In this document: positions 21,601 to 54,494 of the stretch, piece after piece | How positions within the stretch are numbered: position 1 is the first letter of the stretch | How the letters are laid out: every line of letters begins with the position of its first letter | From: Escherichia phage CAjan | Length of the DNA: 59,670 nt | Direction: 5' to 3' (one strand) | Sequence record: KP064094 | Translations under genes and position numbers: made by a program | Notes under the pieces: generated by a model | The model's database searches: none | What the model was told of the DNA's origin: nothing | What the model saw: only the letters and a program-made list of their open reading frames with translations

Positions 21601-21710
21601 AAACACAGGAATTAGATAAACTCAAACAAGAAGTGTTAGAATTAAAAAACACTGTTAAGGAGCTTGTCAATACTATTAATAAAACAACAGACCCTTCCCA
21701 ATTACCTTAA
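18627..21710 (+). CDS. tail fiber protein with C-terminal intramolecular chaperone (S74-like) domain
   Basis: about 1027 aa from ATG 18627; Ala-rich coiled region; C-terminus has SDINYKTNIED...ELVTFVFKDDEKKRVRRGVIAQQIEQ and a terminal coiled coil, as in autoproteolytic tail-fiber chaperone domains. Confidence 0.7.
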   Translation: MATRLYGTLRDGLGKPIINATVALLAKGNTITVLTGSEAIFKTDSQGAYNITVQTGYYKVIIGPQGIEPYKAGEIAIYADSKEGSLNSYLTSWAPEELTPEVIAQVKELVANSEQFALQAGRAAAAAQSDATDARNSKASAAQSASEALVYKNDSKTNADAAKQAQAGASGSANTASAALTTIQGIQKDVTSSKDRAVTAETNAKSSETVATQAKTDAVTAKEQAVAAKDKAQQIADSIDPQSIKNSIGLGVERRYLSDLTKPFSDVGFFMINSSTIGYPSVADQSAMSGYVARQDGSPSYTGLFVDPGHGHAYTMTQFNNVATFRQLTFSADVDRIKQLSSGTRVYGGPQDERYFEVHTGAWGVYNVTEKKWLPLAIQQGGTGAVTADDALKNIGGFKMQRSTIGTANLNDFTGSKCGVYFQNSIANATKDRNYPINSAGVLLVYMTFANGVESCVQEYIEYRYGTKFIRTYDVGNNTWTEWKQFVVAGQNITFAGVTTRGQDTTSSSFVSQVTNSSGATIGQFEARADTTGNASLIVRDLSGSNSRFYTLNLNGSFDAPEGYALKTTSDWNALLNVNAASFKMVSGPTNSPVETVNYGGFHLSFSGNYGVQFAGRNNDYMLRGIEAGEYSDWNRIIVGTKAKYIPLDSRDGFISDNDGNTTWAPSNGGGFQASYAENRIMQGWVDGAGRLYGRFLTSDQATTPKTDVAWKSSAMLEMDNRFTGTNTFIGDVVCSAANPLRLRSGNPTISFVESDTSESTYLFVADGGNFRLNRDTTAGAELFSYSRSQNNLKLGVSSYFTLNTRFDQGWTSKGAVDVTTTGYSTVSVITTTSTDAVGARNQFEVNPSTNEFYLARRNRSNLTGQWLIKFPSAGGTLALSGTSDINYKTNIEDYDGLHSVENIKAMELVTFVFKDDEKKRVRRGVIAQQIEQIDPTYVKRTYEPCGEAIVDEDGVVQGYSEEKERVVLDNNVILLDCLCAIQVLIKQDEEKTQELDKLKQEVLELKNTVKELVNTINKTTDPSQLP

Positions 21711-21726
21711 CCACATCTAACTTCCA

Positions 21727-21753
21727 CAGCGCGTCTTCGGGCGCGCTTTTTAT
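21727..21753 (+). terminator. intrinsic terminator after tail fiber gene
   Basis: GCGCGTC-TTCG-GGCGCGC hairpin followed by TTTTTATT. Confidence 0.55.
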
Positions 21754-21881
21754 TGACTGTCAATCCTAATTTACAAAATCTTTACATTTGGATCATTGTA
21801 AAAAGCATGTTAAGGGGTATGCTTTACTTCGTAACCAGTTGGTTACATCCGCTTAACAAATCCATATATGGAGATTTTCCT

Positions 21882-22589
21882 ATGTCTGACATGACTCTTT
21901 TACCTACTAATCTCGGTGGCGACGGTTTCGGTGGTGAAGCTGGTGCGGCTGGTATCGGTGGCGCGATCGGTGGCTTAATTGGTTCCTGGATCGGTAATGG
22001 TTGGGGCGGCAATGGTGGTTGGGGTGGTCGCGGTAACTTCGCTGGCCCGGTGGAAGTGCAAGCTTCTGTTGACACCAACGCAATTCTGCAAGCTATCAAC
22101 AACGGTACTCTTCAGACCATTCAGGGGCAGAACGGTACTAACCTGACTGTTGAGCGCTCCGCTGCTTCTACCTATAACGGTATTACTCAGCAGAACACTC
22201 AGAACCTACTGGCTTCCGTTCAGGGCTTTGCTGGTCTGAACACGCAAATCCAGGGCGGCACCAGCCAAGTGCTCGCGGCTCTGTGTAACAACGAAGCAGC
22301 TAACATTACCCGCTCCTTCCAGGCTCAGTTAGAAGCTCAGAAGTGTTGCTGCGAAACCAACCTGAACATCGAGCGTCAAGCAGAAGCTACTCGTGCTCTC
22401 CTGCGCGATCAGCACGCACAGGCGCAAGCAGTTCTGATCTGTGACCTGAAATCTCAGTTGCAGGAAGCTCGCTTTGCAAACTCTCAGTTGGCACAAACGG
22501 CTGGTCTTACTTGTAAGATCAATCAGGTTGAGCAGTTAGTTAACTTTAAACTGCCAACTCCTCCGACTCCTCCGACTGGCTGCTGCTAA
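21882..22589 (+). CDS. Gly-rich / Gln-Asn-rich cysteine-containing protein of unknown function
   Basis: 235 aa from ATG 21882 with SD GGAG; N-terminal glycine-zipper-like stretch (GGDGFGGEAGAAGIGGAIGGLIGSWIGNGWGGNGGWGG), CCC and C-terminal PTPPTPPTGCC. Confidence 0.45.
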   Translation: MSDMTLLPTNLGGDGFGGEAGAAGIGGAIGGLIGSWIGNGWGGNGGWGGRGNFAGPVEVQASVDTNAILQAINNGTLQTIQGQNGTNLTVERSAASTYNGITQQNTQNLLASVQGFAGLNTQIQGGTSQVLAALCNNEAANITRSFQAQLEAQKCCCETNLNIERQAEATRALLRDQHAQAQAVLICDLKSQLQEARFANSQLAQTAGLTCKINQVEQLVNFKLPTPPTPPTGCC

Positions 22590-49967: not shown

Positions 49968-50260
49968 CTCCGATAGGGTATTGCCTTAACCCTATGGTAA
50001 GACCCTCCCTATTAAATTGCAAGAGTTATTGTAAAACAATAGGTATAGGGTGCAATACAGGGTTCATATAGGGTAACCCTATAAACACCCTATAAAATAC
50101 CCTCCCTATGCAGCTTTCTAAATTTATAGTTTTAGTTTACCCCTTGCGCCCCCGCAGAAAAACTAAAGATAGGGGTACTAGGGTAAACATTGGCAAATAC
50201 CCTATACCCTACTCCCTATACTATGATTCTAAAAAATTTGGTGTATACCCCTATAAACTT
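49968..50260. repeat. array of CCCTAT/ATAGGG repeats (iteron-like) followed by AT-rich tract to about 50420
   Basis: At least 12 copies of the CCCTAT(A) core in both orientations within about 300 bp, including palindrome ATAGGGTAACCCTAT and runs such as ACCCTATACCCTACTCCCTATAC. Confidence 0.6.
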
Positions 50261-50592
50261 ATAAACTTTCAGTCAACTAACTAAAATAAAACTAATTAAA
50301 CTAATATTAATAATAACTATAAATATATATAAAATAAGGATTTATTATTATTGTATATAGTACCTATTGGTATTATGTGATGAGTTTATAGTCACTAAAT
50401 AAACTCTATAAATTTTAATAAACCTGAACGGATGCAGATCAAAAATGAGAAGTCAAGTGCTTTTGAGGGAAATTTATTGAACTATTGTGATCGGAAGGTA
50501 TATCAAGCTATAATGCGCTTAATCGCGGGATATTGGAGGAGGACTTTATTGCGCGGTTAACCGGACCAGTAGGAGGGCTGGCCCGGAGTAGT

Positions 50593-52653: not shown

Positions 52654-52798
52654 CGTGATATTGAATAGGCCAAAAGTGCTATTTTAGAATTGTTTTGCAT
52701 CTAGTGAAAATTATGCTTGCCTTGCACGTTTAGCACTAATGGCCTAACTAACATCACATTATCTGGAGTATTCGCGCGGGCGCACACATACATATAAG

Positions 52799-52925
52799 GT
52801 GTGCCGGATCGACCAGGTGGGAGCGATGCGCCGAATTGACCAGGGGCACCGGATGCCCCTGCGTGTGCGGAGCCTACCAGGTGGGAGCAGCTCCCGCGTG
52901 TGCCGGAAATACCAGGGGCGCGCGA
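52799..52925. repeat. GC-rich degenerate direct repeats in divergent intergenic region
   Basis: Units GTGTGCCGGATCGACCAGGTGGGAGC, GTGTGCGGAGCCTACCAGGTGGGAGC, GTGTGCCGGAAATACCAGGGGCGC plus palindromes GGGGCACCGGATGCCCC and GGGAGCAGCTCCC. Confidence 0.55.
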
Positions 52926-52960
52926 GCCCATGCACTTTACAAAATATTTTTATAAAAAGT

Positions 52961-52989
52961 GCAAAAAGGTGTAGACACATGATCGGTCT
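52961..52989 (+). promoter_or_regulatory. sigma70-like promoter candidate for rightward small-gene block
   Basis: TAGACA - 17 bp - TACTAT about 60 bp upstream of the ATG at 53052; next to a TTTTTATAAAAA palindrome. Confidence 0.3.
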
Positions 52990-53051
52990 AGCACTACTAT
53001 ATACACATACCGCAAGGGTACTACAAATCAACTAATTTACGGGGGTACAAA

Positions 53052-53315
53052 ATGGTCCGCATCCTGGAACGTTATAAAAACGAAGCTACTGGCGCTATTG
53101 CATTCAAACGTATGTTAGTAAAACAAATCGACGGTTTATTCCGTGTTGTTAAAGAAGTCGATTACGGCAACGGCGCAGGAGTAACTACAACTATTGTCCC
53201 GGGCATTAAAGCGTATAAAACTTTAAAAGGTGCCGAGAAGGCCCTGGCAGCCTGGAAACCTGAACGCTATCAAATGACCCGTGTTGAATGGCTCATGCAG
53301 GAAGGTAAGATCTAA
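53052..53315 (+). CDS. hypothetical protein
   Basis: 87-aa ORF with SD GGGGG; first plus-strand gene after the divergent region. Confidence 0.45.
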   Translation: MVRILERYKNEATGAIAFKRMLVKQIDGLFRVVKEVDYGNGAGVTTTIVPGIKAYKTLKGAEKALAAWKPERYQMTRVEWLMQEGKI

Positions 53316-53383
53316 GTTTGTTTATACAATGGGCATTAATACAGTGCCCATTAATAAGCTAACTAATCATATCGAGGTATATT

Positions 53384-53668
53384 ATGTCCATCGTTACTAT
53401 GTCGTTCTTCGACCATTGCAATAACGAAAAACAAATTATCGTTAACCTGCAAAAAGGGTCTGTTGTTGCACGCAATGCTAAACGCCAATGCATCGCGCTA
53501 ACCGATTTTGCTTTCCGCCTTAACGTGGACAATACCACCGCCAAAAATATCGTTCACGATACAGCGTTGGAAGCTGCTCACGCAGCGAAGGATGAAGGTA
53601 TTCGCGCCGCACGTAAAATCATGCACAAAGCGCTCGGCATCACGTTCTTCGTTGGGATTAAGGGGTAA
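53384..53668 (+). CDS. hypothetical protein
   Basis: 94-aa ORF with SD GAGGT. Confidence 0.45.
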   Translation: MSIVTMSFFDHCNNEKQIIVNLQKGSVVARNAKRQCIALTDFAFRLNVDNTTAKNIVHDTALEAAHAAKDEGIRAARKIMHKALGITFFVGIKG

Positions 53669-53825
53669 CTACTATGTCACGCAAATACACGCTTACACGC
53701 GCACAGCACGCGTTATTAATTGCAGCAATGCGCGCAGAATATGCAGTTCATGGCTGGCATAGTGCTATGATGCGCGGTAAAAGCATATATGCGGACATGC
53801 GCTCGCAAGGATAACGCACACAGCG

Positions 53826-53920
53826 CCACTCTAGCGAGCTAATGTACATAGGTAATGGTAATGCATTAGCTCGGGCGAAACAGGCGCACAGCGTCGCGCA
53901 CAGCTCGCACAGCGCACACA
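53826..53920. repeat. inverted repeat and CGCACAG direct repeats in non-coding region
   Basis: GAGCTAATG...CATTAGCTC 9-bp inverted repeat flanking GGTAATG x2, followed by CGCACAG x4 and GACCC repeats. Confidence 0.5.
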
Positions 53921-54242
53921 GACCCACGCAGACCCAGCCGCGCGACCCGACCCATCCTTTTCCAGGTACTTGGATCGCTGGGGCGTGCCCTGTCCATCCT
54001 GATAGTAAGTCCTTGTCTAAATCTCACCTGTCACATTCCTATCCACCTACATCCATGACCACACCTACCTTCTTTTTGAATATATTGCGCTCATCCTTTC
54101 TAAATATATGGATTTGGTAGTAAATTCTGAGTCGTCAACGTATAATTCGTCTTGTAGCTGCTCCATAGCTACCATCTTTAAGCGGATGCAACCAATTTCT
54201 ATCAATTCACACCTGTTTTAGAGCATCAAGGAGGAGGTATTT

Positions 54243-54494
54243 ATGTGCGACATCAGTGCAAGCGCTGCACCCAGCACCTCCAGCAATGTGGTTACAGAGG
54301 TAAATGCAATGCGATTAGGCCCATATCGCGGGTATTATGGTCGGGCAGCATGGAATGACGCTACTCAACGTTTTGAAGGCTGGATTATCTGTCCGGAACG
54401 TGTTAAATTTCATTCCGTAAAAGAGAAAAATATCGTTCTTAATTTTCAAAAATGTGTCACTAAATATGTAGAGGAGCAAGAAGAATGCGTGTAG
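54243..54494 (+). CDS. hypothetical protein
   Basis: 83 aa, very strong SD AAGGAGGAGG. Confidence 0.45.
   Translation: MCDISASAAPSTSSNVVTEVNAMRLGPYRGYYGRAAWNDATQRFEGWIICPERVKFHSVKEKNIVLNFQKCVTKYVEEQEECV

Follow-up and report, generated by a model that had tools for sequence, protein, structure and literature searches.

The locus described here is a non-coding island at positions 53811-54242 of the genome of Escherichia phage CAjan (record KP064094), the whole 59,670-nt stretch being referred to as the window and supplying all coordinates below unless another genome is named. The phage belongs to the genus Seuratvirus (Queuovirinae), as do all of the 33-34 phage records that were matched, most of them at 92-97% identity over the island region. 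In the map of open reading frames (ORFs), the genes of the first 23.6 kb or so (terminase to tail) are on the + strand, those between about 24 and 52.65 kb are on the - strand, and a set of small genes from 53,052 to the genome end is again on the + strand. The island lies inside this last block, between the + strand genes 53674-53814 and 54243-54494, the second of which matches phrog_24875; about 428 nt separate the TAA stop codon of the first (53812-53814) from the ATG of the second (54243). About 0.8 kb upstream lies a divergent control region (52654-53051) in which sigma-70-like promoters are predicted in both directions. The island is conserved, non-coding DNA and most probably serves as a control region where one transcription unit of the rightward early block ends and the next begins, which would make it an ordinary sort of element; its features are collected in Table 1.

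The RNA that Rho binds is C-rich, G-poor, unstructured and free of ribosomes, and rut sites are sought with a 78-nt window, a C/G ratio above 1 and cytosines spaced every 11-13 nt (PMC6407284). The G-depleted stretch in the right half of the island is proposed as such a Rho-loading site. Its segment 54031-54108, with 25 C and 4 G, bears out the G-poor, C/A/T-rich composition pointed out in an earlier note on this DNA, and its C/G of 6.25 is the highest sense-strand value of any 78-nt window in the genome, with a YC dinucleotide density twice the genome average. When criteria of the RhoTermPredict type are tightened to a C/G of at least 4, only two + strand sites pass genome-wide, one being 53988-54076 and the other 21661-21738, which takes in the last codons of a 1031-aa tail-fibre gene and an intrinsic terminator at about 21722-21745. 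The least structured of 1986 sense-strand 120-nt windows (rank 1) is the + strand RNA of 54001-54120, with a folding energy of -8.9 kcal/mol where the genome averages -27.5 +/- 6.1. No conserved reading frame continues past the upstream stop codon, and the stretch would presumably be untranslated in vivo. Judged from sequence, all four properties expected of Rho-binding RNA appear to coincide here, at the extreme of this genome.

The same properties were followed in seven Seuratvirus relatives by taking, for each, the maximum C/G per 78-nt window and the least structured 120-nt window. A high C/G was kept in all seven island variants (range 3.6-16), even where the sequence itself had been replaced: the maximum was 16 in yong3, 10.3 in slur01, 8.7 in SA126VB, 6.0 in STP-SP5 and 3.6-3.7 in phiG7, Skure and SA80RD, the three relatives that carry an endonuclease gene in the island. 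The least structured window fell between -3 and -14 kcal/mol in six of the seven and stood at -18.4 kcal/mol in SA80RD. A terminator scan found no intrinsic terminator in the island on either strand.

Shortly after the upstream stop codon lies hairpin H1, which the earlier note had reported as a 9-bp inverted repeat; the repeat is real, but it is 10 bp long. The arms are 100% complementary, the RNA fold has an energy of -17.1 kcal/mol (z -2.2, with 4 of 200 shuffles equally stable), and by a rough estimate of our own chance would supply about 0.01 perfect 10-bp inverted repeats within 30 nt in a stretch of 430 nt. A hairpin of -14 to -24 kcal/mol occupies this position in 15 of the 15 sequences folded; STP-SP5 builds it from another stem (GAGCTAGCCC/GGGCTAGCTC), Skure pairs GGTAATG with CATTACC, and SA126VB has identical arm sequences. 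In Seurat, Greed and SA80RD, single-base changes turn a pair into G.U on the + strand and into an A.C mismatch on the - strand; being tolerated on the + strand only, they constitute modest evidence that H1 acts as + strand RNA. H1 does not qualify as an intrinsic terminator, as it has a 19-nt loop and no U tract, the terminator scan found no T run and GGGCGAAACA follows directly; the SA80RD record labels the hairpin as a terminator. We propose that H1 is a 3' stem-loop stabilising the upstream mRNA, and possibly a protein-binding site.

To the right of H1 the island turns into a GC-rich repeat block. The loop of H1 holds the two GGTAATG copies that had been noted (at 53851 and 53857), and the reported GACCC repeats are present as four copies in a period-10 array at 53919-53950, as is the TATAAT hexamer, at 54141-54146. 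As for the four CGCACAG copies of the earlier note, three are exact (53885, 53897 and 53906), while the supposed fourth at 53913 is the variant CGCACACAG; a second variant lies at 53815. Three of the genome's 11 CGCACAG copies are thus packed into 28 bp of the island, where Tandem Repeats Finder reports periods of 12, 9 and 7, and GCACAGC repeats at 10-12-nt spacing occur also in STP-SP5 and yong3. Taken together, these sequence features exceed chance and most are retained in relatives. A pairing of CGCACAG with the start region of the next gene (AUGUGCGA) was considered and rejected, as it spans 7 nt only and is lost in STP-SP5 and yong3.

Over the whole island, identity to STP-SP5 and yong3, the most distant relatives, is 73% and 76%, as against 69-75% for the adjacent coding genes, and this conservation is blocky, with near-invariant stretches (ATAACGCACACAGCGC, the GCACAGC repeats, GACCCGACCCATCCTTTTCCAGGTACTT, TGTCCATCCTGATAGTA, CCCACCTACCT, GGATTTTGGTAGTAAATTCTGAGTCGTCA and CATCTTTAAGCGGATG) separated by variable spacers. 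The ATAACGCACACAGCGC block is near-invariant across relatives, STP-SP5 and yong3 included, despite differing upstream genes. Among close relatives the least substituted part is 54111-54200, and the GGATTTGGTAGTAAATTCTGAGTCGTCA block overlaps both the spacer of the + strand promoter candidate and a TTGACG -35-like hexamer on the - strand. A search for further genome copies of three conserved blocks returned none within 3 mismatches; being single-copy, they are not a repeated promoter motif.

At the right end, the candidate promoter with its perfect TATAAT likely drives the downstream operon, going by its sequence and that of its counterparts. In the window a GTAGCT...AGCTAC hairpin comes 7 nt after TATAAT; STP-SP5 has TAGAAA-17-TATACT, 6 nt and a GTACC...GGTAC hairpin, and yong3 has TATACT, 6 nt and a GAGCTG...CGGCTC hairpin, so that a geometry of -10 element, 6-7 nt and hairpin is common to three lineages. 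At the equivalent place phiG7 carries a strong TTGAAA-16-TGCTAAAAT promoter, and Skure retains the extended -10 TGCTAAAAT with a poor -35. The two hairpins of the 5' untranslated region (UTR) are read tentatively, with STP-SP5 showing GTACC-7 nt-GGTAC and ACATC...GATGT at the same positions; lying downstream of the rut-like stretch, they could act as pause hairpins.

Table 1 Features of the island in the CAjan window
Feature	Coordinates	Strand	Description
Junction block ATAACGCACACAGCGC	53811-53826	+	includes stop codon of upstream gene; left recombination breakpoint of island
Hairpin H1	53835-53873	+	arms CGAGCTAATG (53835-53844) and CATTAGCTCG (53864-53873); 19-nt loop with GGTAATG x2
ORF	53842-54120	+	92 aa; not a gene
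GC-rich repeat block	53884-53950	+	GCGCACAGC x2, TCGCACAGC, CGCACACAG, then (A/C)GACCC x4; within replaceable middle module 53869-53986
Conserved block GACCCGACCCATCCTTTTCCAGGTACTT	53944-53972	+	almost identical in STP-SP5 and yong3; unique in genome
G-depleted, C/U-rich, unstructured, untranslated stretch	53988-54108	+	proposed Rho-loading (rut-like) site
Conserved block TGTCCATCCTGATAGTA	53991-54007	+	inside G-depleted stretch
Conserved block ACCACACCTACCT	54058-54070	+	inside G-depleted stretch
Conserved block GGATTTGGTAGTAAATTCTGAGTCGTCA	54110-54137	+	kept in STP-SP5 and yong3; unique in genome
Sigma-70-like promoter candidate	54118-54146	+	TAGTAA-17-TATAAT; start predicted near 54153; for downstream operon
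First 5' UTR hairpin	54155-54173	+	GTAGCT-7 nt-AGCTAC; read from sequence
Second 5' UTR hairpin	54173-54188	+	CATC-TTTAAGCG-GATG; read from sequence
Shine-Dalgarno AAGGAGGAGG and ATG of gene 54243-54494	54226-54245	+	right island end

Among the readings weighed, a Rho-dependent terminator followed by a promoter, a combination that the earlier note did not consider, fits the strand asymmetry best. Under this reading, transcripts from the early promoter near 52972-53000 would cross the small genes at 53052-53814 and enter the island untranslated, meeting a stem-loop 20 nt past the stop codon, then the GC-rich repeat module and finally about 120 nt of C/U-rich, unstructured, rut-like RNA. Host Rho would load there and terminate transcription within the next 50-150 nt, after which exonucleases would trim the RNA back to the stem-loop, which would shield the upstream message. 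Transcription would be restarted from the promoter, and gene 54243-54494 and the genes beyond would be preceded by a short 5' UTR that holds small hairpins and a strong site for ribosome binding. Trimming of Rho-terminated RNAs from the 3' end has been described (PMC9927376, PMC12350095), as have conserved 3' stem-loops that mark transcript ends (PMC13613805), and the two together would give H1 a natural role. We put the probability that the island stops early transcription through host Rho and restarts it from its own promoter at about 0.5; Rho action, the positions of the transcript ends and the firing of the promoter are what we infer in this scheme. If it holds, three immediate-early genes would be set apart from the remainder of the rightward early operon by a Rho stop some 0.8 kb into it, with a promoter placed directly after the stop. 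To our knowledge, nothing is known about the timing of gene expression in Seuratvirus and other Queuovirinae phages.

A known counterpart is lambda tR1, the Rho-dependent terminator between cro and cII in a phage early operon. Both consist of untranslated, C-rich, G-poor, unstructured RNA longer than 78 nt soon after the first rightward early gene or genes, with genes of the same orientation downstream and a stem-loop upstream of the C-rich stretch. In contrast to tR1, no antitermination site of the boxA/boxB type and no N-like protein were identified for the island; since the candidate promoter directly follows the proposed terminator, the downstream genes may not need read-through. Another parallel is the cassette of SA126VB (OL960573), which sits between the same genes and whose record annotates, in its own version of the middle module, a terminator of the hairpin type, a TATAAT promoter and no coding sequence; the CAjan island differs in its middle module of CGCACAG and GACCC repeats, which has no intrinsic terminator, and in a hairpin that is not followed by a U tract.

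Several observations weigh against a terminator followed by a promoter. Relaxed rut criteria are common, with 6113 + strand windows at a C/G above 1, Rho dependence is not readable from sequence, and the strand asymmetry can also be taken the other way round, as that of a G-rich RNA made leftward. The -35 hexamer TAGTAA of the promoter matches the consensus at 3 of 6 positions, and for this reason the candidate fell below the threshold of a consensus scan and was not called, while its -10 TATAAT is perfect. Both 5' UTR hairpins are omitted from the minimum-energy fold of the window's UTR (z 0.23). A check for a pause element, taken as a hairpin with a 4-8-nt loop within 150 nt downstream, did find GTAGCT-7 nt-AGCTAC in that range, but its stem is not GC-rich and it is absent from the minimum-energy fold. 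Moreover, a function of composition only leaves unexplained why blocks of 17-28 nt (TGTCCATCCTGATAGTA, GACCCGACCCATCC... and AAATTCTGAGTCGTCA) stay near-identical in distant relatives, which is unusual when set beside ordinary rut sites; as composition alone cannot account for them, something sequence-specific also acts at the island. It is conceivable, though rather improbable, that the near-invariant blocks GACCCGACCCATCC..GGTACTT, TGTCCATCCTGATAGTA and AAATTCTGAGTCGTCA in the G-depleted leader form a sequence-specific Seuratvirus regulatory element of RNA or DNA, which might serve a phage factor that blocks or licenses Rho, or be the recognition site of a phage transcription factor. In the former case, a Rho-antagonising or antitermination switch would time the shift from early to later genes.

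The earlier note had thought the island probably non-coding, and this view has strong support: indels break the frame, substitutions are spread evenly over the codon positions, and no protein family matches. The 92-aa ORF does have the low-complexity character ascribed to it, being rich in His, Ser, Pro and Thr and without a Shine-Dalgarno sequence upstream. When 12 close relatives were aligned over the island, eight indel events were counted, six of which are not multiples of 3 (1 nt at 53980, 54036, 54112, 54184 and 54215, and 31 nt at 54024), and further 1-nt indels fall between the conserved blocks in STP-SP5 and yong3. The + frame of the ORF, measured from stop to stop, runs for 101 codons in the window, 135-143 in most close relatives, 105 in IMGVR18, 80 in OddieOddie and 67 in slur01 and SeppeHuegi, and the - strand ORFs of the island vary in the same manner. 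Substituted columns by codon position (1/2/3) number 21/22/17 for the + strand ORF, with the - strand ORFs equally flat, as against 7/3/14, a third-position excess, in the neighbouring gene 54243-54494. Pfam and PHROG searches matched none of the three island ORFs, compared with PHROG families for six of six flanking genes, and protein-level conservation of the 92-aa ORF, which would have overturned the non-coding assignment, was not found in the comparative alignment. The possibility that a small protein is nevertheless encoded, by this ORF or by one of the annotated - strand ORFs, takes its support from published annotations: a 126-aa + strand ORF in Seurat, a 171-aa ORF in KurtStettler, three - strand ORFs in KS_A3, a 42-aa - strand ORF in Greed and OddieOddie, and an ORF in another frame in yong3, with no island ORF called in SA126VB, slur01 and STP-SP5. 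These calls, however, conflict in strand, frame and length, and the ORFs have neither Shine-Dalgarno sequence nor family match, and with close relatives carrying frame-shifting indels and no third-position excess to be seen, a coding role appears close to refuted. As the indels break the frame, we regard the coding question as settled, and at least six published relatives with conflicting "hypothetical protein" calls over this stretch would merit correction in the databases.

The term recombination hotspot, also offered in the earlier note, holds as a description. Breakpoints are shared at 53811, 53868/53987, 54033-54050 and about 54104; the blastn matches of many relatives start exactly at 53811, and some 20 records have the island architecture of the window. 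In SA126VB, 53869-53986 is replaced by an unrelated 256-bp non-coding module with its own hairpins and TATAAT; Skure has a similar swap of the middle module, five or six further records (SLUR25, SLUR63, GottfriedDienst, SHIN8, ECP2304 and others) show the same split in their match pattern, and SD04 carries a 450-bp replacement. In at least five relatives (phiG7, Skure, SA80RD, WildeMaa and Dru_SM1) the match is confined to the left part of the island. The right third, to the right of 54033-54050, is occupied in phiG7, Skure and SA80RD by a free-standing HNH homing endonuclease gene. The WildeMaa record also lists a putative homing endonuclease; at least three relatives carry such a gene, and the number is probably five. 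Free-standing homing endonucleases inserted between conserved genes are familiar from T-even phages; relatives of CAjan likewise hold such a gene inside the island, the difference being that the window itself has none. By these comparisons the island qualifies as a recombination joint and a locus of homing endonuclease insertion, and this locus offers a safe, naturally used insertion site for engineering these phages. The HNH genes lie at 1937-2410, 1679-2152 and 1330-1812 of the stretches of phiG7, Skure and SA80RD (L006, L007 and L012), each insertion substituting the right third of the island together with the first 22 codons of the downstream gene; that of phiG7 has its own promoter and a small ORF before the gene, Skure having the extended -10 only.

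Three further explanations have to be set against termination by Rho. The mosaicism just described could mean that the island has no transcriptional role and is a conserved linker or homing target, kept alike by recombination or homing rather than by function. The shared breakpoints, the HNH genes, the left-only matches of WildeMaa and Dru_SM1 and a 31-nt match of the island - strand to the leader of a mobile tail-fibre cassette (21839-21869) all suit such a view; yet it leaves unexplained the extreme C/G and unstructured RNA in every variant, replaced sequences included, as well as the rebuilding of H1 from different stems, and we consider it unlikely. The small-RNA locus proposed in the earlier note would be an RNA processed out of the early operon's 3' UTR, or a leftward transcript antisense to the early genes. 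Non-coding sequence conserved as well as the neighbouring genes, a conserved hairpin and a leftward promoter-like site in most relatives are what one would expect of it. The searches for such an RNA, however, gave no Rfam match in the island with E values as high as 10, no intrinsic terminator on the + or the - strand, a 300-nt core that folds no better than shuffles (z -0.05 and -0.23 on the two strands) and RNAalifold covariation terms that are positive, hence penalising, on both strands, while the middle and right parts of the island are replaceable in viable relatives; a tRNA scan of the island was likewise empty. The island is not a structured RNA, the exception being the local hairpin H1 with its stem replacement, and a small regulatory RNA is an improbable explanation.

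The remaining suggestion of the earlier note, an origin, takes its most concrete form as a secondary, transcription-primed origin of the R-loop type, such as T4 oriF/oriG and ColE1, where a promoter and a persistent RNA-DNA hybrid are found. Read leftward, the island would offer a promoter at 54137-54108, transcription through AT-rich 54105-54070 and a G-rich RNA over the C-rich template 54060-53880, whose stable hybrid would prime DNA synthesis, with the GCACAGC repeats binding an initiator. The resemblance to the known R-loop origins extends to the promoter-like site, the AT-rich segment and the G-rich transcript over a C-rich template: relatives with four T at 54113 carry - strand TTGACG-16-CAAAAT, yong3 has GTGACG-16-TAAAAT, downstream of this site G strongly outnumbers C on the - strand, and short repeats are at hand. 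The leftward sigma-70 promoter, however, was rejected as a candidate, the window being short of one T in its -10 region, STP-SP5 having a poor -10, and the block being deleted in the viable relatives phiG7 and Skure and falling outside the matched part in SA80RD, WildeMaa and Dru_SM1. SA126VB and Skure have another module in place of the repeats, the repeat spacing is irregular (12, 9 and 8 nt), a DnaA-box-like CTATCCACC at 54040 was discarded as variable among close relatives, and regular iterons next to very AT-rich DNA, both retained in relatives, were not found, the island having a GC content of 0.39 over 54000-54199. GC skew tracks the coding strand, and the minimum of the cumulative skew coincides with, and merely reflects, the switch in gene orientation. 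A far more typical origin is offered by 50023-50592, a 570-bp gap in the - strand gene block with at least seven ACCCTATA/CCCTATA repeats at 50070-50260 and, beside them, about 130 bp of very low GC (0.225-0.245 in 200-nt windows over 50200-50499); it looks like iterons with a DNA unwinding element and is the best origin candidate in the genome. Given this better candidate, an origin in the island is very improbable.

Beyond the genus the island has few traces. It shows no similarity to E. coli genomes and plasmids; the pattern TGTCCATYCTGATAGTA retrieved three real relatives and four chance matches from IMG/VR, and the pattern ACCCGACCCA-N8-12-GGTACTT proved too loose in metagenomes, with 2 of 120 loci real, both of them close relatives. 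G-poor leaders also occur upstream of rightward genes in Nonagvirus 9g and Craquatrovirus PSTCR7, but an nhmmer search of 9g, PSTCR7, PSTCR4 and Vid5 with an island profile yielded E values of about 1 or worse (best 0.98), so the resemblance across genera is compositional and homology is not established. PDP46 was dropped as a Nonagvirus comparison genome, its layout being different. In the Providencia phages PSTCR7 (730-1372 of stretch L020) and PSTCR4 (738-1381 of L021), a non-coding G-poor island of about 640 bp lies at the equivalent early position, with an intrinsic terminator at its start and some twenty AATAACA-type repeats, which resemble the (AAN)n pattern of Hfq binding.

Within the genome, a scan of 11-mers for island sequence elsewhere gave little beyond noise, the exception being the 31 nt TTGGTTACATCCGCTTAA|CAAATCCATATAT, which match the leader of a tail-fibre-associated gene starting at 21882. 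The copy on the island - strand is split into 54195-54178 and 54116-54104 by 61 nt that hold TATAAT and the first UTR hairpin; the surrounding intergenic region 21711-21890 is common to Nonagvirus and T5-like phages. At 54113-54115 the window reads TTT where all 11 aligned relatives have TTTT, which shortens the 92-aa ORF and spoils the leftward -10-like hexamer, and the missing T reflects either a genuine deletion of 1 nt or an error in sequencing the homopolymer.

In the surroundings of the island, homologues of the otherwise indel-free gene 54243-54494 in two metagenome relatives (L013 and L076) have a 1-nt gap, which is either an assembly error or the mark of a pseudogene. A perfect 10-bp hairpin, AATGGGCATT-AATAC-AGTGCCCATT, stands at 53328-53352 between genes 53052-53315 and 53384-53668; the 81 nt around it (53310-53390) fold at -21 kcal/mol (z -4.1) and have no U tract, and 53312-53388 is 88-94% identical in relatives with different flanking genes. 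The divergent early control region holds, at 52800-52925, three to four copies of approximately GTGTGCCGGAnnnACCAGG(T/G)GG with a period of about 27, which are probably the operator of a phage regulator, and the motif recurs as GTGTGCCGGAAATACCAGGTAAC in the equivalent region of Nonagvirus 9g (27960-28040 of L146).

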